Shown: positions 11,885 to 25,417 of the stretch, piece by piece | Position numbering within the stretch: the first letter of the stretch is position 1 | Layout of the letters: every line of letters begins with the position of its first letter | From: an uncultured Bacilli bacterium | GTDB lineage: Bacteria; Bacillota_I; Bacilli_A; RF39; UBA660 | Assembly: GCA_947631525.1 (NCBI GenBank) | Contig: CANRLQ010000001.1 | Span: forward strand, 1-35,418 | Reading direction: 5' to 3' | DNA length: 35,418 nt | Notes under the pieces: generated by a model | Told to the model about the DNA's origin: nothing | What the model saw: only the letters and a program-made list of their open reading frames with translations | The model's database searches: none | Program-made: the position numbers and the translations under genes

Positions 11885-12286
11885 CTAATATGGTGTTTCT
11901 AATATTGCATCTATTTTGTTGTCAATTGTAAAGTCAACAACTTCATTTGCAACAGTAGAAGTTTGTTTTGATCTCACCCTTAGACTTACTTTAGGTGGAT
12001 ATTCACTAATATCATAAATATCTATAACATATGTATTTGATAAAGATGCATTTTCTGCAAATCTTCTAACAAATATCTCTGCAAATTTTTCTCCATCTAT
12101 ACTAATATTCCCTGTTTTTGCATATTCAGCTTGATCAATAGCATCATACATTGCTGCTTCAGTTGTTTCTCTAAGCAATGTATAATTTTGCTGATCTGTA
12201 TTAGTAATATTTTGGAAGAAATATATAAAAACTATAGATGTAACTCCGAGCATTAAAATCATGCTCCCCCAAAATGATTCTTTCAT
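11885..12286 (-). CDS. 133-aa prepilin-like / N-terminally anchored protein, cassette A
   Basis: MKESFWG is followed by SMILMLGVTSIVFIYFF. By eye it is about two-thirds identical to 18564..18965. It follows the giant protein gene with an 18-nt gap. Confidence 0.6.
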   Translation of the reverse strand: MKESFWGSMILMLGVTSIVFIYFFQNITNTDQQNYTLLRETTEAAMYDAIDQAEYAKTGNISIDGEKFAEIFVRRFAENASLSNTYVIDIYDISEYPPKVSLRVRSKQTSTVANEVVDFTIDNKIDAILETPY

Positions 12287-12304
12287 TTATATTTCCTCCT
12301 TTAC

Positions 12305-15300
12305 TTATTTCCCATTAGGATATGTAGCTAAAGTTGATGATGAAGAATATTTTTCATAACAACTTCTAAGAGTTGAAGTAGTATCTGTGCTTGAACAATT
12401 TCCTCCAACTAATATACCTTTATATTGTCCACGTAAGAAATTACTACTAACGCAAGTGTTGTCATCACATGTATAATCACTTTTTGTTGGTGTATATGAA
12501 TGTTCTTTATTATAATTTCTTATGCTTTTAATATCTTCTGGAGTTAAATTAATTGTGTATAATATATTTCCATCATCTTTATATAAATTATCAGCTTCTA
12601 CAGTTCCATTATTTGACAATCTTGTATGAATTTTATTTTGAACCCACCATAAATTTCGCCAATTATAACCTGGAAAACGACCTATATTCGTAGTATCATA
12701 TGAAGTTACTTTACCTGAATAAGTCATACCTGGAAATGGATCTTTTAAATCTATAACTCTATATACTATTTTTTTACCTCCATATGGGCAAGTTTGTTCT
12801 TCACAAACAGCTAACGCTTCAGCAATTTGTGATTCATTTGCTGTTGAAGTAGTAAGTCCTTTCTTAGCTAATTCTAATTCTAAACAATATTCTGGATTAC
12901 CCATATCTTCACACTCACCTTCTGGTGGACATCCAGGACATCTATATCTAGTTTCACATATTTCACCATTAGCACATACTTTTTTCCATATAACAGCTTT
13001 TGTTCCCTCTGGTTGTATTGATTTCCAACTACAACTATCTGTATTACATACACTATTACACATTTTATTGTAACAATATTCAAAATCATCAGAAGCATAA
13101 TTTTGATATTTATCTATTTCTTTGCTAAGATTTTTAGATTTTTCTTCAGCTTGTTTTAAAGTTACTGTATTTCCTCTAACATTTAAATTAATTTTTCCTT
13201 TTTCTTGTTCTACTTCGTCATTAATTCTTTGAATTAATTTATTTACTTCATCTTTTAATTTATCATAATCGTTAAGACTTATTCGTGCTTCCTCATTTCT
13301 AACTGTAACATATTCAAGTGATGAAACTTTAATTTGTTTTTTACTTTCAAATTCAGAAACAGATTTTTTTAATTTTTCTAATTTTTGCTTATTTTTTTCA
13401 TTTCTTTCGCTTTGATAACTAGTTTTACATATGCTGCTTTCTATTCTATCTGTAATATTTTCTAATGTTAAATTATTATGAGTTCTATCTTCTATACAAT
13501 CTTCATATTCTTTTATTTCAGTTTCTAATTTTGTTATTTCTTTTATTGCATCGTTATAAGACATTGTTTCATAATCAACTTGTATTTCTCTTTTTGATTT
13601 CAGTTTTTCGATATCTTTTTCTAATTTTTCAATATCTTTATTTAATGTTTCAATAACATTTTTAGCTTGATTAATTGATGAAATAACAATACGATGAACA
13701 TAATCTGTCTGGATGGTATAACGAAATTCATTTGATGAGTTAGTATTTCTTATTGCTTGATCATAGTCATTTTTTAAATTTTGTGTAGAACTTAATAAAT
13801 TTCTACTATTAAAGCAATCTGTTAAATCAACTGTTTGATGATTATATTCACATGTACAATGTTTATAATTTTCATTTTCATATTGTTTTTTATATTCTTC
13901 AAATTCTTCACTTGATAAATAACATAATTTAGTTTGAGCATCTAAGCAAGCAAGATTTGAATTACCACCATTATTGCCAGGCTCCCCACTACATAATAAT
14001 AGCACATCAAGATTTTCTCCTGCCATAGGTGAAGAACTTGGACAAATACAATTATCTTCTCCTCCTACTTCATAAGAACAAGTATAATCAGTTATCTTAC
14101 TTCCAACATTATTATCTATACCTAAATTTAAATTTAATTTCAAATAATATTTACCACTAGCATTTTTAGAAATTGCTAATGAACCTTCTTTTCTATTTTG
14201 AATTAAAGGAAGAACTGCATTAGCATCGTTATTTGTAGAAAAGAATCTACCAGTTTGATCAATCCAAGAATTCAAATTTGCTGGTAATTTAAACCAAGAT
14301 GTTTGTGACATAGAAATTGATGAAGTACCTACTGAGATATTATTTTGTTTCGTAGAACTTAAAACTATTGGACTATTTCCATATTGTTCATCAGTATAAT
14401 TAACTGTAGCACCATTTTGATAGCTACTGTAATAGTCATTAACTAAATTTGTATTTGAAACACTTCCACAAGTAGCCGTAGTTCCCACTGGATCTGGATT
14501 AACAATTGTACAGCTAGTATTGATTGTTATCTTCATTCTATAAGAAGATAATTTATCGTTCCAATTACTAGTTGGCCATTCAAATGAAGTACCAGGTTTC
14601 ATTTGTTTTTTTACATTACCTGGTAATATCAGAGTAAAAGTATCTTTACAATAAACATTACATCCACCAGTTGTTGTACTAACAAATCGTCCATAATAAT
14701 TTGAACGTTGGCCTAAACTTTCATCACAAGAATTATTATCTGTTTTTACAGTATAAACAGACTCAAGAACCATTTTTTTATTATAGTCATCTGTACACTT
14801 TAAATTATTTGTTTTAGTTTGAATTGAATTAGACATACAGCAAGAATTACAATAAACATTTGTATATTGACTTACTATTCCATCTAATCTTCCACTTAAT
14901 GTTGCATTTGTTGGAGATGTTAATGAATTATCATACCAAAACTTAATATAATTTTTTATATCATAATTTTGTACTTTACCAACACAGTCAACAGGTTGAC
15001 ATGAATATTGAAAACAATTGTTTTCATATCGACATAAATCTTCAGCTTGTGCATCACTATATTTTTTATCCGTATATTTTTTTATACAATCTGTAATCTT
15101 AACTTGCCCTCCAGTTATAGGATTAGTACAATACCTATTTGCTGTACAATATAAATCTTTACAAGTAGATTTTGCATTTGCCTCACTTTGACCTGCATCA
15201 ACATAATTTTCAACACAAGTAGTTATATCCATTCCCTTATTTATTGCTGAATCATCAGGACATAAAATTTTATCAGGTGGTGGTATAGCAGCTGATATAT

Positions 15301-16021
15301 CTATAATATTCATACCACATCCCACATCATAATCTTTAGATGTCTCTAAATTATTTTCATTACTACAAAATTCCTTAGTTTTATATTTAATTCCAACATC
15401 TGTAAAATTAGTATAAAAAGCCGCTAACATATCTGAATATCTACTCCTACGTTGTTCTCCACCTTTAACCCTAATTTTTGTAACATTTTTTATTGTGTCA
15501 TAATAAATCGTACCTGAATTACCATTCATAACATATGTAACAACAGGTTCAATAACAATACGATATCCTTTTTTAGCATGTGGTGATTCCTTTTTAGCTG
15601 GTTCACTCTTTTTATAACTAGATTCTCCAGTTTTTTTGAACCATTTTTTGGCATTTTTCCAATCATTCTTTTTAAACCATTCTTTTATTTTCTTGCTTGC
15701 TTCTGCATATTCGGTATTACCAACACCTTTAAGTACCCCACTACTTTTATCTAATATATTTTTATCACCCCAGTTTTTATTAGACCAATATTCACTATAA
15801 TATTTTTTATAACTAGCACCATTTATCCAATATAGTGTAACCTTAACAGTTAAGTGATTGGCATTATTGTACATACAAGGGCCAGAAACACTAGAACAAC
15901 TAGCTCCACTTCCACTTACAACGTCACTACCTTCACCATTATATATCGATGCTGAAACATTAGTATTGCCTATAAAAGCTAATAAAATAAATACAAATAC
16001 AAATTTACATATTTTTTTCAT
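12305..16021 (-). CDS. giant secreted cysteine-rich protein A (1238 aa), function unknown, adhesin or pilus-associated candidate
   Basis: Sec signal MKKICKFVFVFILLAFIGNTNVSA. I hand-counted about 51 Cys. It shares blocks with 18980..22333, for example YYGRFVSTTTGGCNVYCKDTFTLILPGNV, YTCSYEV and IVYRVIDLKDPFPG...RFPGYNW. Confidence 0.8.
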   Translation of the reverse strand: MKKICKFVFVFILLAFIGNTNVSASIYNGEGSDVVSGSGASCSSVSGPCMYNNANHLTVKVTLYWINGASYKKYYSEYWSNKNWGDKNILDKSSGVLKGVGNTEYAEASKKIKEWFKKNDWKNAKKWFKKTGESSYKKSEPAKKESPHAKKGYRIVIEPVVTYVMNGNSGTIYYDTIKNVTKIRVKGGEQRRSRYSDMLAAFYTNFTDVGIKYKTKEFCSNENNLETSKDYDVGCGMNIIDISAAIPPPDKILCPDDSAINKGMDITTCVENYVDAGQSEANAKSTCKDLYCTANRYCTNPITGGQVKITDCIKKYTDKKYSDAQAEDLCRYENNCFQYSCQPVDCVGKVQNYDIKNYIKFWYDNSLTSPTNATLSGRLDGIVSQYTNVYCNSCCMSNSIQTKTNNLKCTDDYNKKMVLESVYTVKTDNNSCDESLGQRSNYYGRFVSTTTGGCNVYCKDTFTLILPGNVKKQMKPGTSFEWPTSNWNDKLSSYRMKITINTSCTIVNPDPVGTTATCGSVSNTNLVNDYYSSYQNGATVNYTDEQYGNSPIVLSSTKQNNISVGTSSISMSQTSWFKLPANLNSWIDQTGRFFSTNNDANAVLPLIQNRKEGSLAISKNASGKYYLKLNLNLGIDNNVGSKITDYTCSYEVGGEDNCICPSSSPMAGENLDVLLLCSGEPGNNGGNSNLACLDAQTKLCYLSSEEFEEYKKQYENENYKHCTCEYNHQTVDLTDCFNSRNLLSSTQNLKNDYDQAIRNTNSSNEFRYTIQTDYVHRIVISSINQAKNVIETLNKDIEKLEKDIEKLKSKREIQVDYETMSYNDAIKEITKLETEIKEYEDCIEDRTHNNLTLENITDRIESSICKTSYQSERNEKNKQKLEKLKKSVSEFESKKQIKVSSLEYVTVRNEEARISLNDYDKLKDEVNKLIQRINDEVEQEKGKINLNVRGNTVTLKQAEEKSKNLSKEIDKYQNYASDDFEYCYNKMCNSVCNTDSCSWKSIQPEGTKAVIWKKVCANGEICETRYRCPGCPPEGECEDMGNPEYCLELELAKKGLTTSTANESQIAEALAVCEEQTCPYGGKKIVYRVIDLKDPFPGMTYSGKVTSYDTTNIGRFPGYNWRNLWWVQNKIHTRLSNNGTVEADNLYKDDGNILYTINLTPEDIKSIRNYNKEHSYTPTKSDYTCDDNTCVSSNFLRGQYKGILVGGNCSSTDTTSTLRSCYEKYSSSSTLATYPNGK

Positions 16022-16035
16022 GTATAAATCACATC

Positions 16036-16689
16036 CTATTTTAATTCATTTTTCTTATCATCTCTATATATAATTATACCACATACTACTATTATTAATG
16101 GTAAGATTATATAATAATATCTTTTATAACTATTTGTAATAATTTCAACCAATCTAGCCAATCCCTGTTTTTCAGCAACTGCTTCTTTTTCTTGTCTATT
16201 CTTTTCTAGTAAGTATTCATTTACTTTCTTTTTAAATTCAGCATCGGTAATGTTTAAATTTATCCATTTTCGACAATATTTATATTCTTGAATATCTTTA
16301 CATAATTCACTTTTATAGTATTTATTATAACTAGGTGTTTTAACATAAATAGTTCTTAACGAATCACTTATACAAACAAAACCTTTTGAATAAACTTCAT
16401 ATCGATACTCTTTGTTAGGTTTTAATCCTTTAACAGTAACATCTTTGTTTGAAGAATATATCTTACCATTTGAAGTATCTTTTATTAACAATTTTCCATT
16501 TAAATTAGTAAAAGTTATATCAAATGTAACATTATTATTAATTTCATTATAAGTATAACTATAAGCTACATTAGCAGATAATTTCTGAATTTCAGATATT
16601 TGTGAATCTAAACAATTTGCTGCTTTAATTTGATATGGAAAAAGTACTAATATAATTAATAGGAAAGAATTAACAAATATTCTTCTCAC
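16036..16689 (-). CDS. secreted FN3-like protein with a C-terminal TM anchor, cassette A
   Basis: I prefer the GTG start at 16689 (RBS GGAGGTG, and the -10 at 16722 leaves no room for the track ATG). It has a signal peptide and a TM anchor YYYIILPLIIVVCGIIIY. VTVKGLKPNKEYRYEVYS is an FN3-type strand signature. It is a paralogue of 23092..23739. Confidence 0.6.
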   Translation of the reverse strand: MRRIFVNSFLLIILVLFPYQIKAANCLDSQISEIQKLSANVAYSYTYNEINNNVTFDITFTNLNGKLLIKDTSNGKIYSSNKDVTVKGLKPNKEYRYEVYSKGFVCISDSLRTIYVKTPSYNKYYKSELCKDIQEYKYCRKWINLNITDAEFKKKVNEYLLEKNRQEKEAVAEKQGLARLVEIITNSYKRYYYIILPLIIVVCGIIIYRDDKKNELK

Positions 16690-16721
16690 AAATTGCACCT
16701 CCATACTCTACCTTAATATAG

Positions 16722-16730
16722 ATTATAACA
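16722..16730 (-). promoter_or_regulatory. extended -10 element TGTTATAAT inside cassette A
   Basis: The reverse complement of 16722..16730 is TGTTATAAT. It lies in the 58-nt gap between the 524-aa gene and the FN3-like gene. Confidence 0.4.
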
Positions 16731-16762
16731 TATTTTTAAAAGAAAAGAAACTAAAATTATAA

Positions 16763-18337
16763 TTATTTTAATTTATATCTGTAAATATTATTTCTAATAT
16801 TAAAAATTAAAGTAATGTTATTTGCTTTTTCTATTTCTTTATAAATTTCAAAATATAAATTTGAATCATTAACCATTTTAGGTTTAATAGGTTTGATTGT
16901 TTGATTCATAATTTTAGTTTCACCATTTATTGTATACTCTATACTACCATATTGATATACTAAATTTTCCAATTTTGAAAAGGTTAGCGGTAAATCTAAT
17001 GAATCAGAATCTACCTCACCATCTAATTTTAAGATTGTTTTTTCATAATTATCTGTATAACTTGGTACTAAATATTCATGTGAATTATAGATTATATTAT
17101 TTATATAATAATTATATCCAACATCCATTCTAGGTGAAATACCATATGAATCTATATATATTTTAAGATCTTTTACCAATTGATTATTTATTTCTAAAGT
17201 TTTACCAATACTTGATTCCTTTTTGTTATTAGAATTAAAGCTTTGAGGTTTAATTCTAATATTAATATAATTATTATTATAATTAGCAAATTTTAAAGTC
17301 ATCTTTTTATTTTTGTATTTTTTTGGTATTTCATATACAAGTAAATATTCGTTTTCTGTTTGACCTTTTATTTCTTCATTATTATAAGTATTTCCAATAT
17401 CAATCAAGTCTTTTTTATATTTTGTTGTATGAACAAAATTAATATCATTTACATTAAGAACAAATCGCTCAGTATTTAAACTACCTCTTTTATTACTATT
17501 GTTTTTTAATTTGAATTTAACGGTAACTATATAATTATCTGTTATTTTTCTATTTTTGTAATCAACATTTGTTATATAAACTTGTTGAGGTGTAAAATTA
17601 AGTAAATCACAATTAACCGATTCACCTAATTTATGAGCTCTATTTTTAACAAAGAAATTAAAATAGATAAAAATTGATAAAACAATTATGGTAAACAACA
17701 CAATAATATTGATAATAAGTTTATTTTCTTTATAAATATATTTAGCATTTCTAAGTTGTCTTTTTATATTTCTTTTTGTTTTATTTGAATCATAGTCTAA
17801 CTCAAATTCAAATTCTTCATTATCTTTTTCTGATATTTCAAAATTCATTTCTTTATCAAAGTCAAATTTTTTAACATCAAATCCTAATGCTCTTACTACA
17901 AAGAAAATAGAACTAATTGTTTGAAGAAGAAATAATACCAAACATATATCATCTATAATTTTTATAACTCTTATATCTACAACACCAATTTCAAGTGTTT
18001 TACATACAGAATATATATATAAATATATAAGTAAAATAAAAACATAAATTATTATATTGAAAATATAATATTTAATTGGTTTTTCTTTCCAATGTAACAA
18101 ATATATAATTATTGATATTAAGATTATTACAAATATAGGAATGATAAATATTAATGAATTAAATAATTGTTTAGTTAAATTAAATACTGATATAATTGAA
18201 CTAGATTGTAAATATTCATTAAAAAAATTTAAAATTGTATTTGTTTTTGTTAATAGATAAACGCTTAATATAGTAAGTATTAAATGAATTATTTTAAAAT
18301 ATTTTATTAAAAATTTATAAGGTTTTCTTAATACCAC
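16763..18337 (-). CDS. 5-TM membrane protein with an acidic cytoplasmic loop and a ~295-aa ectodomain, cassette A
   Basis: 524 aa with a GTG start and RBS AGGAGGG. I predict four N-terminal TMs, the loop EEFEFELDYD, a fifth TM and a beta-rich C-terminal domain. It is a paralogue of 23834..25417. Confidence 0.65.
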   Translation of the reverse strand: MVLRKPYKFLIKYFKIIHLILTILSVYLLTKTNTILNFFNEYLQSSSIISVFNLTKQLFNSLIFIIPIFVIILISIIIYLLHWKEKPIKYYIFNIIIYVFILLIYLYIYSVCKTLEIGVVDIRVIKIIDDICLVLFLLQTISSIFFVVRALGFDVKKFDFDKEMNFEISEKDNEEFEFELDYDSNKTKRNIKRQLRNAKYIYKENKLIINIIVLFTIIVLSIFIYFNFFVKNRAHKLGESVNCDLLNFTPQQVYITNVDYKNRKITDNYIVTVKFKLKNNSNKRGSLNTERFVLNVNDINFVHTTKYKKDLIDIGNTYNNEEIKGQTENEYLLVYEIPKKYKNKKMTLKFANYNNNYINIRIKPQSFNSNNKKESSIGKTLEINNQLVKDLKIYIDSYGISPRMDVGYNYYINNIIYNSHEYLVPSYTDNYEKTILKLDGEVDSDSLDLPLTFSKLENLVYQYGSIEYTINGETKIMNQTIKPIKPKMVNDSNLYFEIYKEIEKANNITLIFNIRNNIYRYKLK

Positions 18338-18533
18338 ACTATCCCTCCTAATTATAAATTATTATCTATTTTATCTAATTTATATATGTATTTGTTTCTT
18401 TTAAATTTTAATAAGTATTCCATTATATAATTTACGAATGAGTTTTTTCTAATATTGATACTTACATACTTTACTTGAAGTTTTTTAATATAACTTTGCC
18501 GACCCCTACTCTATTTACTATTATAAACTATTT

Positions 18534-18560
18534 AAAAAAAAAAGAAAAGTATTTTTTCTT
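18534..18560 (-). terminator. weak hairpin plus T-run after cassette B
   Basis: The minus strand reads AAGAAAA-AATAC-TTTTCTT followed by a T-run. The stem is almost entirely A/T, so it is weak. Confidence 0.25.
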
Positions 18561-18563
18561 TTT

Positions 18564-18965
18564 TTAATAAGGAAGTTCTAAAATAGCATCTATTTTGTTA
18601 TCAATAGTAACTTCTACTATTTCATTAGCCGCATTAGTTGATTTTGTCGCTCTAACTTGCAAACTAACTTTAGGTGGATATTCACTAATATCATATATAT
18701 CAATATAGTAATCGTTAGATAAAGAAGCAACTTCTGAATATCTTCTAACAAAACTCTCAATAAATTTTTCTCTATTAATTTTAACATTTCCTGTATTTGT
18801 ATAATTAACTTTATCTATTGAATCATACATAGCTGCTTCAGTTATTTCTTTTATCAATGTATAATTTTGTTGATCAACATTTGTAACATTTTGAAAGAAA
18901 AATACAAACAATATGGAAATAATTCCTAGTATCAATATCATCGATCCCCAAAATGATTCTTTCAT
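18564..18965 (-). CDS. 133-aa prepilin-like / N-terminally anchored protein, cassette B
   Basis: MKESFWG is followed by SMILILGIISILFVFFF. It shares DIYDISEYPPKVSL and TIDNKIDAILE with 11885..12286. Confidence 0.6.
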   Translation of the reverse strand: MKESFWGSMILILGIISILFVFFFQNVTNVDQQNYTLIKEITEAAMYDSIDKVNYTNTGNVKINREKFIESFVRRYSEVASLSNDYYIDIYDISEYPPKVSLQVRATKSTNAANEIVEVTIDNKIDAILELPY

Positions 18966-18979
18966 TTACTCATCTCTCC

Positions 18980-21900
18980 TTAATTATAACAATTATAAAA
19001 ATCTTTTTCTTTAGATGTACTACTCAATCCATTACAATTACCATTTTTATTATTAAGATTTTTTGATAGTATATTGATTTTATAATCTGTTAATTCACCA
19101 TGTAACAATTTACTTATACAAGCTGAAGAATCACTACTATTTAAACATTTTAAGTCAAAATTATCATAACTATTCTTTTCATTGTATTTTCTTATTGTTT
19201 TTATATCTTTTGAAGTAAGTTTTATTGTATAAAGAGGATTTTTACTATAAATTTTGCTTCCTTTACTATTTCTAGAATTTAATATTTTTTCCTTTACATA
19301 TTGTGAATCCCAGTTACTTCCAGGATATCTTCCATACAAGCTTGTATTACTAAACTTATTTGTTTTTCCATTTGTTTGTAACATTCCAGGAAATGGATTA
19401 TCTAAATCAATTGTTCTAAAGACAATACTGCTATTATAATTTGTTGAACATATAGCAGGTTCACATTCTCTTAAAACTTTATATAGATTTGCTCTATCAA
19501 TCGAATTAATATTTTTAGCTAAATTATTATCAGGCATATATCCATAATTTCTAAGTTTATTTATAACACAAATTTTAGGGTCTCCTGTTAATATTTTGTC
19601 ATTTGGGCAAAAGAAATTAACATCGCAGAAAGTCAAATTTCCATCACAATATTTATATTTAATATTCAATCTATCAGTAGCAACTGCTTCATTTTCCCAT
19701 TTACAATCACCGATGCATGTATTTTCACAAACAGGAATTGTTATATCAGAATCACAATAAGTTGCCTGTAAATCTGCACAGCTTTTATCACTACAACTAA
19801 ATGGTAAAATTTTGTCATAGTTCTTAGTACCAGATGGACACTTACAAACATCGGTTGTTGTAATATATGGTGCTACTTCATAATTACATGTATAATTACC
19901 TTGATTTACAATATCACCAATAATATTTGATGTACCCAAGTTAAAAACCTTTAATTTTAATTCATAAATAGTTGGAAAATCATCAGTAGAAGTTGATATA
20001 ACACCTTTACCTCTATCAAAGGTATTTATGTTTGGATAAGTAAGTATTTCACCACTTATTCTATTATAATATCTATTTACATTTTCATTCAATTTATATG
20101 TTATAACTCTATTTACAGAAACATTTCTATCTGCTGTTGTAAAACCATTCCATCCATCTGTAAAATTAGTTAAATCTTTCGCAATATCCAAAGAACCTTT
20201 ATACCAATGTTTTGATTTTTCCTCATTTACTGTACTACCTGCTTCTATTTGAACCGAAGGATTTTGATTGTTATTGAAGAAATCGCTAGGAGTAAATTTA
20301 TAACTACGACAATCTCCATCAGCTGTACTTCCTTCTCTAATGATAATCTTACATTTTTCTTTTATATTTATTTGAAGTGGATATGTTCCATTTACTGTTG
20401 GCCATTCAAAATAATTTCCACGTGGTATTATTTTAGAAACATTACCTGGAAAACTTAGATTAACTGTCTCTAAACAATATATATCACAATTACCAATTGT
20501 TTTTACATGTCTACCATTATATTTTGATGAACCTTCCTCACATGTATTATCTTCCACTTTTACTGATTCTTCATTATATGAAGCTTCATTATTCTTATCA
20601 GTATTAACACAAACTAATGAATTTGTAAGTGACTTATTACTTAATTTAACATCAAAACAACTTATTGGGCAATATCTTTGCTTACATTCCAAACTTGCTT
20701 CATTTATATCTACAACATCATCATCTGTTGAAGCATTAAGCTTATTTTTTATACAATCTTGATAATCCTTATCAGTTCTTCTATGATATTTACCATAATC
20801 ATCAATCGTTGCACATGGTGCATAACAATTATCCACTTTACACATATCAAGTGCTAATTGTGGTTCTATACCTTTTTTAATATTATCTTTATAACAATCA
20901 CTTATATTAGTTTTATTATTTGGATCTGAAGCTACAGCTTCATCATTCATACCATAAACACAAGATTTACTTTCTGTACAAGTATCGGCTATACATATAT
21001 TCTTAGCATCATCAAAACTAGGTTCCTTAGAACAACATTGTCCATTTTTTGCCATAAATGCCCCTGTACATTTATTAGTATAGTTTTGATTAACTAGAAA
21101 GTATCCTCCTTTGCAAGATGGATTCCAATCCGCAGTTGTATCATTTATTGTACACTTAGTATTATTATCAGTCATATGATAACCAGCTGCACAATATAAT
21201 TTTGTATTATCATATGCATAACAATATGGATAAGCTCCATTTTTACCAACTGCATATCCTGGTGGACAAACAAATTGGTCAGTTCTATCCAGTATACATG
21301 TACGTGTCCCTGAGACAAAAGTATAACCTTGTGGACAATTAGGCTTTACCCTACAATAACCTGTATCTGAATTATATTCATATCCAGATGGGCATTTTCT
21401 TTTTGAAGCATTATCTTTATAACATGTTGTTCCACTTTTTTGCCATCCACTCGAGCAAGAATATGTACATGAAAGTTTAGTAGCATCCCAACTTGTTGAA
21501 TATGTTGTATGTGAACAACATCTATTATTAGAATTATCACCAGAATTATGACATAACTTTCTAGATACAGATCCCCCATTATATCCCGCTGCCGCACAAT
21601 TAGCATAAACTCCTGCTGAAACTGAATGATATGTTGTAGATGATGTTGTTTGATAACAGCTATTACCACTTTTGTTCCATCCACTTGCACATGAGCATGT
21701 TTGAGTAGCATTTTTTGTTTTTCTACAAGTTTTTGCAGAACTATTCCAAGAAAATCCATCACCATTACATGTTGGCTGTACTCTACACCAAGTATTATTG
21801 CTATTCCAGCTAGTTCCACTAGGACAAGTAGCTGTACTAGAATATCTACATGCTGTACCAAGATATTGACCACCACTATTACATGATACTAAATTATTTG

Positions 21901-22333
21901 TAATTAAACATGTCCCACCACCATTTACAGAAGCAAAAGAACCTGCACTACAATTTATATTAGTTTTACTTACACCAACACAAGTAGTTCCACTAAGTAC
22001 ATAAGCAGTTGATGGACAAAAATATTCTTTATCATACATAGTTACTGGTGGATTATTAAATTCTTCATCAACACAACTAGTTATATTTAATTCCGATTTT
22101 GTTTGTGTATCAGTACAAAATATTTGTGAAGTTTGTTCACATTCTTCAGAAGAGTCTCCTAACCATATTAGACCTACACCATAACCTTTACTGCTATCAA
22201 TCAAATTATCTAAAGAAGCAACCCCACTAACTGAACTTAAAGAAAATGAAGAAAATTGTGTTTTTTTAGAATCGTAATACATATAATGTGAAATAGCATC
22301 TACATTTAATTCAAAGTCACTTTCTTTCATCAA
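18980..22333 (-). CDS. giant cysteine-rich protein B, main body (the frame stays open upstream to 22432; its N-terminus is in ORF 22402..23082)
   Basis: 1117 aa from the track, with no signal peptide. I hand-counted about 71 Cys. It contains 13 C-x-x-G-aromatic...C repeats plus the shared blocks YNGRHVKTIGNCDIYCLETVNLSFPGNV, YTCNYEV and IVFRTIDLDNPFPG...RYPGSNW. Confidence 0.75.
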   Translation of the reverse strand: MMKESDFELNVDAISHYMYYDSKKTQFSSFSLSSVSGVASLDNLIDSSKGYGVGLIWLGDSSEECEQTSQIFCTDTQTKSELNITSCVDEEFNNPPVTMYDKEYFCPSTAYVLSGTTCVGVSKTNINCSAGSFASVNGGGTCLITNNLVSCNSGGQYLGTACRYSSTATCPSGTSWNSNNTWCRVQPTCNGDGFSWNSSAKTCRKTKNATQTCSCASGWNKSGNSCYQTTSSTTYHSVSAGVYANCAAAGYNGGSVSRKLCHNSGDNSNNRCCSHTTYSTSWDATKLSCTYSCSSGWQKSGTTCYKDNASKRKCPSGYEYNSDTGYCRVKPNCPQGYTFVSGTRTCILDRTDQFVCPPGYAVGKNGAYPYCYAYDNTKLYCAAGYHMTDNNTKCTINDTTADWNPSCKGGYFLVNQNYTNKCTGAFMAKNGQCCSKEPSFDDAKNICIADTCTESKSCVYGMNDEAVASDPNNKTNISDCYKDNIKKGIEPQLALDMCKVDNCYAPCATIDDYGKYHRRTDKDYQDCIKNKLNASTDDDVVDINEASLECKQRYCPISCFDVKLSNKSLTNSLVCVNTDKNNEASYNEESVKVEDNTCEEGSSKYNGRHVKTIGNCDIYCLETVNLSFPGNVSKIIPRGNYFEWPTVNGTYPLQINIKEKCKIIIREGSTADGDCRSYKFTPSDFFNNNQNPSVQIEAGSTVNEEKSKHWYKGSLDIAKDLTNFTDGWNGFTTADRNVSVNRVITYKLNENVNRYYNRISGEILTYPNINTFDRGKGVISTSTDDFPTIYELKLKVFNLGTSNIIGDIVNQGNYTCNYEVAPYITTTDVCKCPSGTKNYDKILPFSCSDKSCADLQATYCDSDITIPVCENTCIGDCKWENEAVATDRLNIKYKYCDGNLTFCDVNFFCPNDKILTGDPKICVINKLRNYGYMPDNNLAKNINSIDRANLYKVLRECEPAICSTNYNSSIVFRTIDLDNPFPGMLQTNGKTNKFSNTSLYGRYPGSNWDSQYVKEKILNSRNSKGSKIYSKNPLYTIKLTSKDIKTIRKYNEKNSYDNFDLKCLNSSDSSACISKLLHGELTDYKINILSKNLNNKNGNCNGLSSTSKEKDFYNCYN
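21026..22018 (-). repeat. coding array of about 13 cysteine-bounded C-x-x-G-[YWF] modules (EGF / ephrin-receptor-like in look)
   Basis: Examples are CPSGTSWNSNNTWC, CNGDGFSWNSSAKTC, CASGWNKSGNSC, CSSGWQKSGTTC, CPSGYEYNSDTGYC, CPQGYTFVSGTRTC, CPPGYAVGKNGAYPYC, CAAGYHMTDNNTKC and CKGGYFLVNQNYTNKC. The array is absent from paralogue A. Confidence 0.7.
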
Positions 22334-22401
22334 ATAAGCTAATTCAGTTGGTGTACCAAAATAATATTTTTTTTCGGAATTAGAACTACTATTATATCCG
22401 A

Positions 22402-23082
22402 TTAAATTAATGGTTCTACTAATATATAATAATCATTTATACAATAATTAGATAAATCTCTATTAAAAGTTTGTTTTACATATAATTTTATACTGGTTTG
22501 ATTATAATTACCTTCTTTATCATAAACTATAGAATCAAAATATTTTATAACACTACTCCAATCTATAGAATTATTTTTATAATTTAAAGTAATACCTGTA
22601 GGTAATTTAGAAATATTATTATATGAATCTAATGCACTAACACCTTTTTCTTTATAACCATTAAAAATATTACTAGTATCTAATGTTAATTTTGATTTTT
22701 GACCAGATATATTATAATATACATTTTGAGTTTTTGATTTTTCATAATAATAATCCTGGCTATATCCAAATTGATTACCAAATGCTGAAACTAAACTTAC
22801 TCTAAATCCTAAAGCATTAACACTTTGTATCCACTCATTCGTTTTACTTGAATCCATATTAGTTACTGGGGAATTTGAAGTACCAATATTTAATTTATAT
22901 GGATCATTACTTTTTTCTGTCGATTCACTATCTTTTACATCATCTGATCTATTTGTTTCAGTCTTTTCTTCTCTATATAAAATTGAATCAATTTTATAAT
23001 TAGTACTTATATTGAAACTATATAAAGATATGACAAGAATAAAACAAAAATACAAAGTTAAGATTGTTAATAGTTTCTTCAT
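22402..23082 (-). CDS. N-terminal fragment of giant protein B (signal peptide or anchor plus first domain)
   Basis: The N-terminus is MKKLLTILTLYFCFILVISLYSF. The C-terminal DYYILVEPLI aligns with GYRIVIEPVV of protein A (aa ~152-161). The next frame continues LIGYNSSSNSEKKYYFGTPTEL, matching MNGNSGTIYYDTIKNV in A. Confidence 0.65.
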   Translation of the reverse strand: MKKLLTILTLYFCFILVISLYSFNISTNYKIDSILYREEKTETNRSDDVKDSESTEKSNDPYKLNIGTSNSPVTNMDSSKTNEWIQSVNALGFRVSLVSAFGNQFGYSQDYYYEKSKTQNVYYNISGQKSKLTLDTSNIFNGYKEKGVSALDSYNNISKLPTGITLNYKNNSIDWSSVIKYFDSIVYDKEGNYNQTSIKLYVKQTFNRDLSNYCINDYYILVEPLI

Positions 23083-23091
23083 TGTTACCTC

Positions 23092-23739
23092 CTACAGAAT
23101 TCTATCTTTTTGATCAAGCTTATAAATAATAATAACTAAAGAAATTATAATAAATGGAAGAAAAATAAAATAATAACTAGTATAAATTTTTATTAAATAA
23201 TATCTAACTTTCTGTAATAATGTTTCTGTTTCTTCAGGTTGTTCTTCTATACTAGGTTTTATACTTTCTTTGTATTCATCAACTTGCTTTTCAAATTTGT
23301 CTAAACTGATATTAACTTCTTGCCATTTTTGACATAATTTATATTTTTCAATTCCATTACATAATTCATTTTTATAATATTTATTATAATTGGGAAATTT
23401 GACATGTATTGTTCTAACTTTTCTATCACTACATACATTTGAAGGATATACATTAAAAACATACTCCTTACCAGATTTAAAATTATTTATAGTTAAATTA
23501 TCTCCCTTATAATATAAATTTCCATCTGAAGTATTTTCTATAACAAACCTACCATATAAATTGTTAAATGTTATATTAAAAATAGCTGTATCATTACTTT
23601 CTTTATAAGTATAATAATAATTTATGTTATTTGATAATGTTACGTAATTATTAAGCATATCATCTGAACAATAAGCCTTTATCCTAGATGGAAATAAAAT
23701 AACTATCAACAAAAAGCTTAAAAAATATACTTTTTTCAT
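23092..23739 (-). CDS. secreted FN3-like protein with a C-terminal TM anchor, cassette B
   Basis: I prefer the ATG at 23739 (RBS GAAGGA), because the -10 at 23772 makes the track GTG at 23763 implausible. It starts MKKVYFLSFLLIVILFPSRIKA, contains LTINNFKSGKEYVFNVYPS, and carries the TM anchor YYFIFLPFIIISLVIIIY. Confidence 0.6.
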   Translation of the reverse strand: MKKVYFLSFLLIVILFPSRIKAYCSDDMLNNYVTLSNNINYYYTYKESNDTAIFNITFNNLYGRFVIENTSDGNLYYKGDNLTINNFKSGKEYVFNVYPSNVCSDRKVRTIHVKFPNYNKYYKNELCNGIEKYKLCQKWQEVNISLDKFEKQVDEYKESIKPSIEEQPEETETLLQKVRYYLIKIYTSYYFIFLPFIIISLVIIIYKLDQKDRIL

Positions 23740-23771
23740 TTTATCAAATCCTTCGTATCCCACTATAATTT

Positions 23772-23780
23772 ATTATAACA
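23772..23780 (-). promoter_or_regulatory. extended -10 element TGTTATAAT inside cassette B
   Basis: The reverse complement of 23772..23780 is TGTTATAAT, immediately downstream of a strong terminator. Confidence 0.45.
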
Positions 23781-23790
23781 AAAAAGTAAT

Positions 23791-23828
23791 AAAAAAAAAA
23801 TACAATTTGGAGTTTAAATTGTATTTTT
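23791..23828 (-). terminator. strong rho-independent terminator after the 527-aa membrane protein gene
   Basis: Perfect 13-bp stem (aaaaatacaattt / aaattgtattttt) with a 7-nt loop, followed by about T10 on the minus strand. It starts 5 nt after the TGA at 23834. Confidence 0.7.
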
Positions 23829-23833
23829 TACGT

Positions 23834-25417
23834 TCATTTTACTTTATACCTATATATATCATTTCTTATATTAAAATTCAATGTAATAGAATCGGCTTTT
23901 TCTATCTCTTTGTTTACTTCTATATAAAACTCATTTTCATAATTTATTTTAGTAGGGTTAACTCTCCTAATTGTTGAGTTAAAAATTTTTGTTTCACCGT
24001 TTATTTTATACTCTATAGTAACAAAATAATTAATAAAATTATATAAATTTTTTAAATTTGGATTTTTATTATCGCCATCATAAACAACATTACCAACTAA
24101 TTTCATAATAGTTTTTTCATAATTATCTGTATAGCTTGGTACTAAATATTCATATGATTCATACATAATACCATCTAATGATTTAAAATCATAATAAACT
24201 GGCATTTTACTATTTATTTCAACTGAACTAATATTAATAGTTGCATTATTAACAATATCATTATTTATAACTAATTTATCATTTAATTCTACTTCTTTAT
24301 TAACACTTTGAATATTTAATTTTTTTGGATTAATATCTACTTTTATTTTTTTATTACTTCCAATATTATATATAAGTACCATTTCTTTATCAACATACTG
24401 ATTAGGAATTTCAAATACCATTATATAATCACTATAATGTTTCATATCAATATTTTGATCTTTATAAATATTTCCTATATCTAATAAGTCATTAGAGTAT
24501 TTTTCAGTATGATTAAAAGGTATGTTATTTACTAGTAATTGAAATTTTGATTGACTTAAGTAACTATCATTTGAATATTTACTTATTGCTTCCAATCTAA
24601 CTACTACAAGTGTATTATTTGTTATTATATTTTGATCATATTTTTGATTTGTTATAAAGGCATCATCAACTTTAATATTTAATGTACCTATATTAAAAAC
24701 TTCACCAACTTTATAGACCTTATTAATCACATTAGAATATAAATAAATAGATACCCCTATAACAATTATAAAAATTAAAGCCCCTGTTCTTATAAAAAAA
24801 CGATTTTCTTTATATACATACTTAATATTTCTGATATTTCTTTTTATATTTCTTTTTGCTTTATTAGTATCAACACTAACATCAAATTCAAATTCTTCAC
24901 TTTCTGTCCTAGAAATATCTAATTCTAAATCTTTACCAAAATTAAATTTTTTAACATCAAATCCAAGTGCTCTTAATATAAAGAAAATAGCACTTATAGT
25001 TTGAAGAATAAATAATATTAGTGATAAATCATCAATTGCTTTTAGTATTCTTATATCAACTACACCATTTTCAAGTATATTACATATAGAATATATGTAC
25101 ATATAACAACCTATAATTGATATATAAACAACCATGTTAAAAATATAAAAATGTATAGGTTTATGCTTCCATTTTAATAAATATATAATCATAGCAATTA
25201 AAATTATTACAAAAATAGGAATAATAAATAATAATGGATTAAATAATTGTTCTGTTAAATTAGATGTCGATATCAATGAACTAGATGTTGCATATTCATT
25301 AAAAAATGATAGAATATTATTTGTTTTTATAACCAAATAAATACTAAGTATAGTTAGTATTAAATGAATAAATCTAAAATTTTTAATCAGAATTTTATAT
25401 GGTTTTTTTAGTACCAT
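23834..25417 (-). CDS. 5-TM membrane protein with an acidic cytoplasmic loop and a ~295-aa ectodomain, cassette B
   Basis: 527 aa with RBS GGGGGA. The N-terminal 230 aa are about two-thirds identical by eye to 16763..18337. It shares EYLVPSYTDNYEKTI and the tail NIRN.IYRYK.K. Confidence 0.65.
   Translation of the reverse strand: MVLKKPYKILIKNFRFIHLILTILSIYLVIKTNNILSFFNEYATSSSLISTSNLTEQLFNPLLFIIPIFVIILIAMIIYLLKWKHKPIHFYIFNMVVYISIIGCYMYIYSICNILENGVVDIRILKAIDDLSLILFILQTISAIFFILRALGFDVKKFNFGKDLELDISRTESEEFEFDVSVDTNKAKRNIKRNIRNIKYVYKENRFFIRTGALIFIIVIGVSIYLYSNVINKVYKVGEVFNIGTLNIKVDDAFITNQKYDQNIITNNTLVVVRLEAISKYSNDSYLSQSKFQLLVNNIPFNHTEKYSNDLLDIGNIYKDQNIDMKHYSDYIMVFEIPNQYVDKEMVLIYNIGSNKKIKVDINPKKLNIQSVNKEVELNDKLVINNDIVNNATINISSVEINSKMPVYYDFKSLDGIMYESYEYLVPSYTDNYEKTIMKLVGNVVYDGDNKNPNLKNLYNFINYFVTIEYKINGETKIFNSTIRRVNPTKINYENEFYIEVNKEIEKADSITLNFNIRNDIYRYKVK

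Follow-up and report, generated by a model that had tools for sequence, protein, structure and literature searches.

Tandem four-gene envelope cassettes at the head of a predicted pilus-like/T4SS-like operon in an uncultured gut Firmicute

The window, by which we mean the whole 35,418-nucleotide stretch of DNA analysed, belongs to an uncultured, low-GC, spore-forming gut Firmicute. The ORF listing places on the minus strand all genes of two cassettes, A (11885-18337) and B (18564-25417), that share one gene order: a polytopic membrane protein with about five transmembrane segments (5-TM), an FN3-like protein, a giant Cys-rich protein and a DUF5411 protein, all four of them envelope proteins. 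The preliminary description reported each of the four families twice, in one shared order, and BLASTP with composition-adjusted statistics confirms significant similarity between the paralogues in every family; in DNA, A and B align in segments 70-81% identical and 6.7-7.1 kb apart. Its count of four genes per cassette holds for A but not for B, which has five ORFs owing to a 1-nt frameshift near 22405-22410 that splits the giant gene. The features are as follows, where L002 and similar handles denote related loci:

25420..25500, minus strand: operon 5' element upstream of cassette B (sequence reading, fold, conservation in relatives)
23834..25417, minus strand: cassette B gene 1, polytopic membrane protein of 527 aa with about 5 TM segments (ORF, BLASTP, hydropathy profile)
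23092..23763, minus strand: cassette B gene 2, 223-aa protein with a signal peptide, a weakly FN3-like ectodomain and a TM anchor at the C-terminus (similarity to A, TM segments)
22402..23082, minus strand: cassette B gene 3, 5' fragment with signal peptide and N-terminal domain, 226 aa, premature stop (three-frame translation)
22402..22410, minus strand: giant B frameshift site, about 1 nt missing in ...CCA TTA ATT TAA... (three-frame translation and L002 alignment)
18980..22333, minus strand: cassette B gene 3, remainder, listed ORF of 1117 aa (islands of similarity to giant A)
18564..18965, minus strand: cassette B gene 4, DUF5411 protein with N-terminal TM helix, 133 aa (Pfam PF17424, E=6.2e-46)
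18470..18564, minus strand: junction copy of the operon 5' element, hairpin 18531-18564, directly 3' of the DUF5411-B stop codon (repeat, five-way alignment)
18338..18469, minus strand: additional leader of about 130 nt ahead of cassette A (consensus matches only)
16763..18337, minus strand: cassette A gene 1, polytopic membrane protein of 524 aa (ORF, BLASTP against the B copy, hydropathy)
16036..16704, minus strand: cassette A gene 2, type-I membrane protein of 222 aa, FN3-like (Pfam fn3 and Pur_ac_phosph_N, both sub-threshold)
12305..16021, minus strand: cassette A gene 3, giant Cys-rich secreted protein of 1238 aa (ORF, islands of similarity to giant B)
11885..12286, minus strand: cassette A gene 4, DUF5411 protein, 133 aa (Pfam PF17424, E=1.5e-48)

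DUF5411, alone among the four families in being catalogued by Pfam, is the most conserved gene of the cassette (A versus B, 70% identity, E=5e-67), although the nearest relative of the B copy, P0144, is closer to it (80%) than the A copy is. The protein is bitopic, and its N-terminus, MKESFWG followed by a hydrophobic helix, resembles those of the pilin-like proteins of the operon (MKEAAGE..., MKQGIGF..., MREALGN...); this pattern is common to DUF5411, pilin and pseudopilin-like proteins across loci, and the Gly of the MKESFWG motif varies. An AlphaFold model of the A copy (mean pLDDT 71.5) consists of a long N-terminal helix (2-48), followed by two short helices and a small sheet of three strands, with which Foldseek retrieved nothing at E<=0.001. 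The 5-TM proteins, whose reported lengths and membrane segments agree with the ORFs and the hydropathy profile, belong to a family of at least 195 unannotated members and are 51% identical (E=1e-161). Their divergence appears to track topology, the membrane and cytoplasmic part (residues 1-226) being kept at 63.7% identity and the outside domain (residues 227-524; about 300 C-terminal amino acids in the cassette B copy) having diverged to 42.6%. An estimate by eye of two-thirds identity for the small proteins and membrane regions was thus close to the aligned values for DUF5411 and for residues 1-226. The FN3-like proteins are 41% identical (E=2e-47). Of the FN3-like signature and C-terminal anchor ascribed to them, the anchor is supported by TM segments at both ends of the B copy in the hydropathy profile, but the FN3 assignment is weak: the A copy matches fn3 (E=0.0018) and Pur_ac_phosph_N (E=0.0035) without reaching either cut-off, the Pfam search with the B copy gave no match, and fn3 matches occur in 3 of 30 family members (best E=7.8e-5).

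The giant proteins are indeed Cys-rich (51 Cys, or 4.1%, in A; 73 in rejoined B) and share only islands, as the preliminary description had it. BLASTP similarity is limited to residues A282-700 versus B442-860 (28%, E=3e-21) and A987-1176 versus B868-1056 (31%, E=1e-17). Divergence along the two proteins is not uniform: the best 50-column windows, in the central and C-terminal domains, reach 40-42% identity, and these conserved domains alternate with large copy-specific inserts, so that the proteins are modular, with the best conserved part at the C-terminus and the variable parts internal. The insert of giant A, residues 715-985, is a coiled coil about 270 aa long, with weak SMC-like matches spanning residues 715-984; that of giant B is Cys-rich and contains about ten hairpin repeats of the form C-x-x-G-[YWF]-x(n)-C (the regex matches 11 times in the protein), none of which occurs in A. 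Both proteins, 1,240-1,370 aa long, are read from their sequences as having a Sec-type signal peptide and no anchor. Giant A matched nothing in Pfam or the PDB, and Foldseek with an AlphaFold model of giant B residues 540-1117 (mean pLDDT 78) returned nothing at E<=0.001. In giant B the 226-aa ORF ends in ...YYILVEPLI and the stop, and three-frame translation continues it in the -1 frame as NLIGYNSSSNSEKKYYFGTPTEL; the frame of the remainder is already open from about 22427. Rejoined giant B matches the intact giant of L002 (WYLMVEPLITVSKNGSKLGYVIGTPTEL) through the break (E=1e-11). No long homopolymer lies at the frameshift; an A8 tract lies about 40 nt downstream, past the stop codon.

The 5' element upstream of cassette B comprises an A/U-rich hairpin and T-run (25460-25493), then a TATACT/TATAAT-like box and a GGGGG ribosome-binding site, and it is kept upstream in L008, L091 and L002 despite differing upstream genes. 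Its junction copy is a 34-nt repeat, 79% identical at a spacing of 6929 nt, which is not decisive by pairwise score only; its predicted fold has -9.3 kcal/mol. In the leader ahead of cassette A, a promoter-like site lies at 18451-18422 and the putative ribosome-binding site is AGGAGGG, both by consensus match only. It is highly improbable that the tandem arrangement is an artefact, with variants of one cassette from two strains or species placed side by side in a metagenome-assembled contig. The window is the whole contig of an NCBI assembly that lacks named proteins and is probably a MAG, and it carries two indel lesions, but the copies, 59-76% identical in DNA, are far too diverged for assembler confusion, the junction (18338-18563) is unique sequence with its own leader, and giant-gene architecture differs between the copies.

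Judged by profile matches and gene order, the cassettes form the head of a conserved pilus-like/T4SS-like operon, which the preliminary description overlooked together with the giant B frameshift and a broken core ATPase. Downstream of cassette A this operon consists of:

11001..11834, minus strand: CpaB/RcpC-like protein, first gene of the unduplicated core (TIGR03177, E=6.6e-7, and PF16976, E=0.0045, both under cut-off)
9642..11001, minus strand: secretion/pilus ATPase of the CpaF/VirB11/FlaI superfamily (Pfam T2SSE, E=1.5e-24)
518..9629, minus strand: remainder of the operon (profile searches; gene order in relatives)

The L089 orthologue of the CpaB-like protein has a precomputed RcpC match. 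The remainder encodes two polytopic proteins, a 77-aa pilin-like protein, two pseudopilin-like proteins, a 327-aa protein, two small 2-TM paralogues, a 353-aa protein, a VirB6/TrbL_4-like protein (TrbL_4, 27.7 bits, the cut-off being 27), a 165-aa protein, a VirB3-like protein and a VirB4-like N-terminal ORF (NF045975 VirB4_plasma, E=4.7e-15), in a gene order repeated in L003, L015, L036, L045 and L089. The two polytopic "platform" proteins matched no T2SSF model, and the window contains no prepilin peptidase. In a three-way DNA alignment with L008 and L002, the ATPase gene has a 23-nt deletion at about 10628/10629 that leaves ORFs of 140 aa and 331 aa; the gene is intact in L002 and L003 (400-430 aa). 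Because the core ATPase carries this deletion, the system may be decaying in this genome; taken together, the giant B frameshift and the ATPase deletion mean either that it is decaying here or that the assembly is imperfect.

The order 5-TM, FN3-like, giant, DUF5411, CpaB-like, ATPase and onward recurs in 16 of 28 related loci and in L089-L092, and none of the 28 loci covering this region has the full four-gene duplication. A survey of copy number, proposed in the preliminary description, finds zero to three copies of the giant gene per relative: it is missing in about nine loci, lies upstream of the 5-TM gene in three and is present in two to three copies in L033, L035 and L038, and the order in L091 is 5-TM, giant, FN3-like, giant, FN3-like, giant, DUF5411. 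Loci without the giant retain DUF5411, FN3-like and 5-TM genes, which are therefore more than mere helpers of the giant. Identity to L002 is 64-83% for core genes and 24-55% for cassette genes. Between A and B, dN/dS is likewise uneven (DUF5411 0.21, FN3-like 0.45, 5-TM 0.47) at dS 0.8-1.15, values that are rough because dS is near saturation. Compared with L008, dN/dS for copy A is 0.14 in DUF5411, 0.40 in 5-TM, 0.50 in FN3-like and 0.65 in the giant, and 0.04-0.17 in core genes, with dS alike in core and cassette genes (0.55-0.87). All dN/dS values are below 1, increasing from DUF5411 towards the giant, and no sign of gene-wide positive selection is seen. By these estimates the duplication is old, and A and B both evolved under purifying selection. 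Divergence is centred on outside-facing regions and lineage-specific inserts.

One rival reading gives the duplication no function today. Cassette B could be redundant and heading for loss, with the whole system being inactivated, as the giant B frameshift outside a slippage-prone tract, the ATPase deletion relative to L008 and L002, and the retention of a duplicated cassette in none of the 28 relatives might suggest. We consider this unlikely: frames are open in both copies with dN/dS of 0.21-0.47 over dS of about 1, so that selection has maintained both cassettes during most of their history; in the 6.8 kb of cassette B the single frameshift is the one interruption; the two lesions could be recent or assembly errors; and the giant gene has multiplied repeatedly in other lineages.

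Origin by transfer is possible, if somewhat doubtful. Cassette B would then be a xenologue from a related lineage that was inserted in tandem, in front of the resident cassette, and brought along a 5' element of its own. In the 5-TM tree copy A is sister to its L008 orthologue and B lies outside, A and B being exclusive sisters in none of 100 bootstraps; DUF5411-B has its closer relative in P0144; and L008, the closest relative, with a core 85-96% identical, has a single, A-like cassette. However, an old in-place duplication followed by loss in the L008 lineage yields the same pattern, dS between A and B is slightly above dS between window and L008, a search for integrase, transposase and flanking repeats found none, and composition is uniform throughout the region.

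What the giant does could in principle be explained by secretion. As the substrate (toxin, enzyme or colonisation factor) of a type-II-secretion-like or T4SS machine and not a fixed adhesin, it would be accompanied by small membrane proteins for export or self-protection. Type IVb pili do export proteins such as TcpF and CofJ, and the giant has a Sec signal peptide without an anchor. DUF5411/CpaF operons have also been called "secretion-related" by computational prediction (PMC9523054). This explanation is nevertheless improbable, since none of 40 family members has an enzyme or toxin domain and structural searches found none, the conserved C-terminus and internal variability are the reverse of polymorphic toxins, and no small variable "immunity" gene follows the giant, the gene there being the strongly conserved DUF5411.

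With moderate confidence we favour an old event in which the operon's first four genes were duplicated in tandem, giving two versions of an outward-facing target-recognition module. The duplication would have taken along the operon's own 5' hairpin/promoter element. The operon encodes a type-IV-filament-like machine (CpaB-like protein, CpaF/VirB11/FlaI-type ATPase, two membrane proteins, a short pilin-like and two pseudopilin-like proteins) joined to VirB6-, VirB3- and VirB4-like genes of Mycoplasma-ICE type, and the cassette would be its outward-facing module for target recognition. In this module the giant may be the adhesin or specificity determinant, docked to the machine through its conserved central and C-terminal domains, with the inserts peculiar to each copy, the coiled coil of A and the Cys-hairpin repeats of B, facing the target; the 5-TM, FN3-like and DUF5411 proteins would be its matched membrane partners in export, anchoring or docking, and two cassettes would provide two alternative specificities. 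We infer surface exposure, docking, adhesion and specificity from these features; adhesion, docking and tip location stay putative because the cassette proteins match no characterised family or solved structure in Pfam, PDB and structural searches, and two working specificities are only putative in this genome because giant B and the core ATPase are disrupted. An earlier interpretation, diversification of an exposed component on a conserved scaffold, stands as regards paralogy, gene order and uneven divergence; the ligand binding that it ascribed to the component stays putative, and the 5-TM and FN3-like "scaffold" genes are strongly diverged themselves.

Among known systems, PilC/PilY1 proteins are Sec-signalled non-pilins of about 1,000 aa in which the C-terminal part is conserved and the N-terminal or central part varies, and they occur as diverged paralogues beside small pilin-like partner genes, as in Neisseria PilC1/PilC2, where one copy is often off through frameshift, and in three M. 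xanthus pilY1-plus-minor-pilin clusters. The giants resemble them in the Sec signal, the conserved C-terminal part, the pilin-like partners, the diverged paralogues and the one frameshifted copy. They differ in that no PilY1/PilC domain is detected in them, the frameshift lies outside a repeat tract, the machine is not a type IVa pilus, and the 5-TM, FN3-like and DUF5411 partners have no counterpart in PilY1 systems. Tip adhesins of this type and their minor-pilin sets are treated in related papers (PMC13533445, PMC13190605). The thin pilus of IncI plasmids such as TP114, with its shufflon-variable PilV adhesins, likewise combines type IV pilus genes with a conjugative T4SS and uses alternative adhesin variants to set partner specificity (PMC9045228). 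It does so through site-specific inversion, which acts on C-terminal segments within a single minor pilin, whereas here whole four-gene cassettes are duplicated, and neither a recombinase nor meaningful inverted repeats are present.

The predicted "secretion-related" operon of Roseburia, Ruminococcus and Eubacterium (Miller et al. 2022, PMC9523054) also belongs to Gram-positive gut bacteria and joins DUF5411 and a CpaF-type ATPase to otherwise unannotated genes, its function being predicted only. That operon, of Clostridia, has eight to nine genes, including PilC/GspF-type and internalin-like proteins; the present one is longer, with VirB6/VirB3/VirB4-like genes and a polytopic pair that does not match T2SSF, and its head cassette families are undescribed there (PMC9523054). 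The VirB4-like ORF, and weakly the VirB6-like protein, match Mycoplasma ICE families (VirB4_plasma/Mbov_0397, Mbov_0396, MMCAP2_0566) with scores far under curated cut-offs. Those ICEs lack a pilus-like module and such a head cassette, and no relaxase, coupling protein or integrase was seen within the window.

In Myxococcus xanthus the Kil (Tad-like) pilus is served by four paralogous clusters of "Tip" genes, KilL/M/N (Herrou et al. 2025, PMC12075869). The tip components there are three true minor pilins (TadE/F/G-like) that carry prepilin signals and are encoded at scattered places in the genome of a diderm predator, whereas here the large protein is a Sec-signalled non-pilin, the cassette adds a polytopic membrane protein and an FN3-like anchor, the copies stand in tandem at the operon head, and the host, a gut Firmicute, is monoderm; neither in sequence nor in fold was a relationship found. 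The points of likeness are that several paralogous clusters serve one filament machine, forming distal complexes that are interchangeable, with bases that are conserved and disulfide-rich outer domains that vary; that a domain of the large component is without PDB relative; and that there is functional coupling between the machine and a second secretion apparatus (PMC12075869). By analogy, Tad-like pili with paralogous, interchangeable tip clusters may offer a precedent for reading the two cassettes as alternative versions of one module (PMC12075869).

Two copies of the same four-gene cassette (A, 11885-18337; B, 18564-25417) lie in tandem on the minus strand, at the head of a long co-directional operon. 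The window that contains them is a complete contig of 35,418 bp; it has a G+C content of ~25% and encodes the spore-germination proteins GerA, GerAC and a spore permease; its housekeeping genes appear intact, and exact-protein look-ups found no identical copies of its proteins on other contigs. The cassette encodes four envelope proteins: a 5-TM protein, an FN3-like protein, a giant Cys-rich secreted protein and a DUF5411 protein. The genes, in cassette order, are:

16763-18337, minus strand: cassette A, 5-TM protein (524 aa)
16036-16704, minus strand: cassette A, FN3-like protein (222 aa)
12305-16021, minus strand: cassette A, giant protein (1238 aa)
11885-12286, minus strand: cassette A, DUF5411 protein (133 aa)
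23834-25417, minus strand: cassette B, 5-TM protein (527 aa)
23092-23763, minus strand: cassette B, FN3-like protein (223 aa)
22402-23082 and 18980-22333, minus strand: cassette B, giant protein in two ORFs (226 aa and 1117 aa)
18564-18965, minus strand: cassette B, DUF5411 protein (133 aa)

The preliminary description of tandem cassettes with four families in the same order is borne out by the ORFs, by BLASTP with composition-corrected statistics and by the DNA, in which segments 70-81% identical recur at a spacing of 6.7-7.1 kb. Between A and B, the DUF5411 proteins are 70% identical (E=5e-67), the 5-TM proteins 51% (E=1e-161) and the FN3-like proteins 41% (E=2e-47); the giants, as had been noticed, share islands alone, one of 28% identity over 458 columns (E=3e-21) and one of 31% over 200 columns (E=1e-17). 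The paralogy of the cassettes is thus real and far beyond chance. The count of four genes each holds for cassette A but not for cassette B, in which the giant gene is interrupted. The FN3-like signature ascribed to the second protein fares unevenly: copy A matches Pfam fn3 below the cut-off (E=0.0018; 18.9 bits versus 25), copy B has no fn3 match, and fn3 is matched by three of 30 family members, the best at 7.8e-5.

Divergence between the cassettes is concentrated in outside-facing regions and inserts. Residues 1-226 of the 5-TM proteins, comprising the N-terminus, four TM helices, a conserved acidic cytoplasmic loop and TM5, are 63.7% identical, and identity is 42.6% in the outside domain (227-524), which includes a 61% island near 400-440; identity of the DUF5411 proteins is uniform along their length (60-75%). 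The giants possess three conserved regions: an N-domain (motifs GYRIxIEP and GCGxNIIDIS), a central domain (C.IYC.E..LPGNV..G.YF.WPT; DRG.GVIS; C.CP.GT.NAG) and a C-terminal domain (IVYRVIDLxNPFPG...R.PG.NW...LYTIKLTP..IK.IR.YN). All three are kept in eight aligned family members, and the central and C-terminal regions also in 40 more distant ones. Giant A has an insert that forms a ~270-aa coiled coil (residues 715-985) with weak SMC-like matches; the insert of giant B contains hairpin repeats of the form C-x-x-G-[YWF]-x(n)-C, about ten in number. A regex for this form finds 11 matches in giant B as a whole and none in giant A, and similar repeats occur at a different position in other family members. 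With conserved regions interleaved with copy-specific inserts, divergence along the giants is clearly non-uniform, as the earlier conserved-scaffold, variable-surface reading requires. Within the giant family, conservation is highest in the C-terminal domain, a pattern that led us to reject a polymorphic toxin/immunity cassette; an immunity role for the gene downstream of the giant was likewise rejected because DUF5411 is the most conserved cassette gene.

The G+C content rises to 0.345 at 21000-22000, compared with ~0.25 elsewhere in the window. This peak falls where giant B has its Cys/Gly/Ser-rich hairpin repeats; it is a coding-composition effect, not evidence of foreign DNA. A 176-aa ORF that overlaps giant B (21346-21876) is spurious.

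By the Nei-Gojobori method, dS between A and B is 0.78 to 1.15, and dN/dS is 0.47 for the 5-TM, 0.45 for the FN3-like and 0.21 for the DUF5411 genes. The closest relative of the window is a locus from another genome, L008 (ATPase fragments 85-96% identical, CpaB-like protein 86%), from which it differs by a dS of 0.55-0.87 in cassette genes and core genes (the unduplicated operon genes downstream, from the CpaB-like protein and ATPase onward) alike; in this comparison the dN/dS range of core genes is 0.04-0.17, and the cassette values are 0.14 (DUF5411), 0.40 (5-TM), 0.50 (FN3-like) and 0.65 (giant). Both cassette copies have been maintained by purifying selection. Similar dS with higher dN/dS than the core indicates that cassette genes evolve faster at the protein level, which makes replacement by transfer unnecessary to explain their divergence. 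Neither A versus B nor the window versus L008 gives a dN/dS sign of positive selection, a comparison with little power at dS ~1. Of the proposed diversification of an exposed component on a conserved scaffold, the uneven, outward-weighted divergence stands, but positive selection is not seen in dN/dS. That an accessory surface module should duplicate in tandem and diverge is nothing out of the ordinary in evolution, and there are good precedents for it. A neighbour-joining tree built from 5-TM proteins places A as sister to L008 and B outside this pair, and A and B are exclusive sisters in 0 of 100 bootstraps; the closest relative of DUF5411 B is a homologue from another genome (P0144, 80% identical, versus 70% to A). 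Accordingly, either the duplication is older than the divergence of the window and L008 lineages, or B came from a related lineage.

A copy of the operon 5' element directly follows the DUF5411-B stop codon, so that the repeated unit consists of this element and the four genes. The element is made up of an A/U-rich 12-bp hairpin with a T-run, immediately upstream of a promoter-like box resembling TATAAT, and of a G-rich ribosome-binding site; it precedes the operon in three related loci (L008, L091 and L002) despite differing upstream genes. Its hairpins are located as follows:

25460-25493: window, 5' element hairpin
18531-18564: window, 5' element hairpin
~190-225: L008, 5' element hairpin
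~9935-9970: L091, 5' element hairpin

The pairwise score of 34 between the two 5' intergenic regions, reached in 0 of 1000 shuffles, is not decisive, since another AT-rich intergenic region scored 38; support for a shared element comes from the five-way alignment with other genomes. The hairpin may serve as an insulating terminator or may regulate the operon from its 5' end. No Rfam RNA families were found in the window. The structure of the unit does not separate duplication in place from tandem insertion.

The 5-TM gene is single within ~10 kb in 87 of 88 related loci, and the other has a partial second copy on the opposite strand. A census of cassettes was based on the 28 loci that cover the whole stretch between the 5-TM and CpaB-like genes: 16 have a canonical single cassette, six lack the giant, in two the giant lies upstream of 5-TM, two lack both giant and DUF5411, two lack both the FN3-like gene and a recognised giant, and the four-gene duplication is in none of them. 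L033, L035 and L038 carry giants in tandem, two or three per locus, and a widely sampled lineage (L089-L092) has a multi-giant operon (L089, 1-9988; L091, 11663-21578) in the order 5TM, giant(1277), FN3-like(217), giant(1242), FN3-like(213), giant(987), DUF5411, in which the giants are 31-44% identical to one another and the FN3-like copies 40%. The head module has therefore been amplified repeatedly, in units that differ, the full four-gene repeat unit being found in the window only, among the loci compared. The cassette is the fastest-evolving, copy-number-variable head of a filament-like/T4SS-like operon. Its duplication here and the zero to three giant copies elsewhere mark the head module as fast-evolving and dispensable, and genes that set specificity typically vary in such a way.

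DUF5411, with 1421 homologues, is the sole cassette family catalogued in Pfam; both copies are full-length members (164.6 bits for A and 156.1 bits for B against PF17424, gathering score 30; profile positions 1-133 of 134). Pfam scans of single proteins and of 40 giant, 50 5-TM and 30 FN3-like members, an NCBIfam scan of six proteins from cassette A and the operon, PDB sequence and profile searches and Foldseek searches with two AlphaFold models assigned no characterised domain or fold to any cassette protein. Of the giant family (1,015 representative clusters at E<=1e-3, clustered at 50% identity), 40 members were scanned and none has a Pfam domain, and sequence and profile searches gave it no PDB relative; the 5-TM family (at least 195 members) yields scattered sub-threshold DUF4352 and PepSY_2 matches and nothing more in 50 members; and the FN3-like family profile matches nothing in the PDB. 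Giant, 5-TM and FN3-like anchor are thus three sizeable families without a Pfam model in the members scanned. The PilY1/Neisseria_PilC beta-propeller domain has no Pfam match in giants A and B, in homologues P0002-P0006 from relatives or in 40 further members. An AlphaFold model of giant B residues 540-1117 (mean pLDDT 78) is beta-rich in its central part and mixed in its C-terminal part, and these C-terminal 578 aa have no Foldseek match at E<=0.001 in the PDB or BFVD. The DUF5411 model (mean pLDDT 71.5) combines a three-stranded sheet with a long helix at the N-terminus (2-48) and two short ones; it matches no pilin or other PDB structure at the same threshold. Weak top Foldseek matches to generic beta-sandwiches and NTF2/VirB8-like folds were set aside (rmsd ~4-30 Å; 11-17 Å for both classes).

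Distant 5-TM homologues (27-32% identity; L050-L088, e.g. L052 and L067-L069) occupy a different, recurrent neighbourhood with no recognisable FN3-like, giant or DUF5411 genes (one instance reads 5TM, 291 aa, 135-157 aa, 779 aa, 220 aa), indicating that the 5-TM family serves more than one kind of system.

Downstream of the cassettes, the operon encodes, in order:

First gene downstream, minus strand: CpaB/RcpC-like protein (TIGR03177, E=6.6e-7, 28.8 bits versus a cut-off of 71)
9642-11001, minus strand: T2SSE-domain ATPase (T2SSE, E=1.5e-24)
After the ATPase, minus strand: two polytopic proteins (300 aa and 262 aa)
7565-7798, minus strand: 77-aa pilin-like protein, starting MKEAAGEANMTVITIVLI
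After the pilin-like protein, minus strand: two pseudopilin-like proteins, then a 327-aa protein
4771-5127 and 5199-5543, minus strand: two small Cys-containing 2-TM paralogues in tandem, 53% identical
Between the 2-TM paralogues and the VirB6-like gene, minus strand: 353-aa protein
Next, minus strand: VirB6/TrbL_4-like polytopic protein (PF19597, 27.7 bits versus a cut-off of 27, a marginal pass; E=2.2e-6)
After the VirB6-like protein, minus strand: VirB3-like protein
518-1066, minus strand: VirB4-like 182-aa ORF (NF045975, Mycoplasma-ICE family, E=4.7e-15)

The CpaB-like protein also has a weak match to PF16976 (E=0.0045), and its L089 orthologue has an RcpC match in precomputed annotation. 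In the PDB, the intact L002 ATPase has FlaI, CpaF and VirB11 as equally near relatives (4e-16 to 8e-15), and it matches the NCBIfam VirB11 and TadA models below their cut-offs. No T2SSF (TadB/TadC platform) match was found by Pfam or NCBIfam in the 300-aa and 262-aa proteins or their L002 orthologues, precomputed Pfam annotation of the L089 platform-position proteins is likewise empty, and no TadV/peptidase A24 prepilin peptidase was detected among the window ORFs scanned. The pilin-like protein lacks the EY of the Flp G/XXXXEY processing motif. Across loci, DUF5411 (MKESFWG...), the pilin (MKEAAGEANMTV...) and both pseudopilin-like proteins (MKQGIGF... and MREALGN...) begin alike, with a short charged leader and then a hydrophobic helix; the class III signal Gly is not invariant in DUF5411, being replaced in several orthologues. 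The match of the 182-aa VirB4-like ORF spans positions 97-276 of the 894 in the NF045975 profile, and the next frame (1-520) has a weak TraC_F_IV match (E=0.011); the contig ends within this gene, as do the relatives' loci fetched. A further frameshift at this point was rejected because an equivalent separate 182-aa ORF with the same end point is present in a related locus (L036, 20925-21473), and the split thus appears native; two genes or programmed frameshifting, not an error, could account for it.

The predicted extracellular parts encoded at 7565-7798, 4771-5543 and 3626-4687 are Cys-rich, with 4 Cys in the 77 aa of the pilin-like protein and 5 Cys in each 2-TM protein. Such surface parts are unusual for a Gram-positive anaerobe, and their Cys-richness hints at disulfide- or metal-stabilised surface structures. 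The small 2-TM genes, of which relatives possess one to three, encode proteins with no family match that may be VirB2-like pilins and that recall the arrays of VirB2 genes which have been reported for Patescibacteria (PMC12102498). The ATPase C-terminus (9642-9980) is a ~110-aa Asn/Gln-rich low-complexity tail (…NVGQIVNNRQPLNTGQTVNQ…) that seems lineage-specific, as orthologue lengths vary from 362 to 489 aa. Outside the operon, a 381-aa ORF between Sir2-like and RumA-like genes (26239-27384) has no Pfam match.

Relatives sampled in gut and other metagenomes have the operon in the same order, and in them it sits amid chromosomal housekeeping and sporulation genes; tblastn found no 5-TM homologues in a plasmid collection and no DUF5411 homologues in plasmid and phage collections. 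A DUF5411-plus-CpaF operon of Clostridia has been computationally predicted to be 'secretion-related' (PMC9523054).

Two genes of the operon are damaged. The 226-aa ORF of giant B carries the signal peptide and ends in ...YYILVEPLI before the stop codon, past which the protein continues in the -1 frame as NLIGYNSSSNSEKKYYFGTPTEL; the lesion of ~1 nt lies within TTAATTTAA, which is neither a slippage-prone tract nor a long repeat. The giant N-domain profile on its own missed this ORF, and its assignment to giant B comes from the alignment across the frameshift, in which the rejoined protein matches the intact L002 giant over the break (E=1e-11). Shufflon or phase-variable switching was rejected, as the ORFs scanned contain no recombinase domain, the inverted repeats found are just short, imperfect and AT-rich, and the frameshift is not in a long repeat. 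The ATPase gene has a 23-nt deletion at ~10628/10629 relative to the intact L008 and L002 genes; it is not a homopolymer-type error, takes out LDIHEFLI and shifts the frame, leaving ORFs of 140 aa and 331 aa, the latter starting at a chance ATG (MLIQCV...). Unless the assembly is wrong, the ATPase deletion together with the giant B frameshift suggests that the system is being lost in this genome, which would make the window an example of an accessory system under loss; two lesions, however, are too few for their enrichment in the operon to be statistically meaningful.

Four uncharacterised head families share one conserved operon, for a likewise uncharacterised machine, in never-cultured gut Firmicutes. 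The cassette may be a target-recognition module, in which the giant would bind the target and be docked via its conserved central and C-terminal domains, 5-TM, FN3-like and DUF5411 proteins would be its matched membrane partners, and two cassettes would give two specificities; we consider the chances of this reading to be about even. If it is true, 'interchangeable filament tips' extend from predatory Proteobacteria to monoderm gut commensals and are tied to a T4SS, which bears on partner choice in contact-dependent exchange. A bolder reading, which seems rather unlikely to us, is that the operon encodes an undescribed hybrid machine, chromosomally conserved in uncultured gut Bacilli/Mycoplasmatota-related Firmicutes, with a type-IV-filament-like module fused to a Mycoplasma-ICE-type T4SS and with the head cassettes as interchangeable modules setting the partner cell or surface that may be engaged for DNA or protein transfer. 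Such a machine would be a monoderm counterpart of Kil 'Tips' or shufflon PilV, and the giant family would amount to a large class of specificity determinants in bacteria that has so far gone unrecognised. Although the locus falls outside the Kil 'Tips', PilC/PilY1 and shufflon PilV by the membership criteria of each, the mechanism proposed for the target-recognition module would work like the interchangeable Kil 'Tips' of Myxococcus (PMC12075869), and resembles both the PilC/PilY1 paralogues with their minor pilins and the shufflon-variable PilV of IncI plasmids (PMC9045228).
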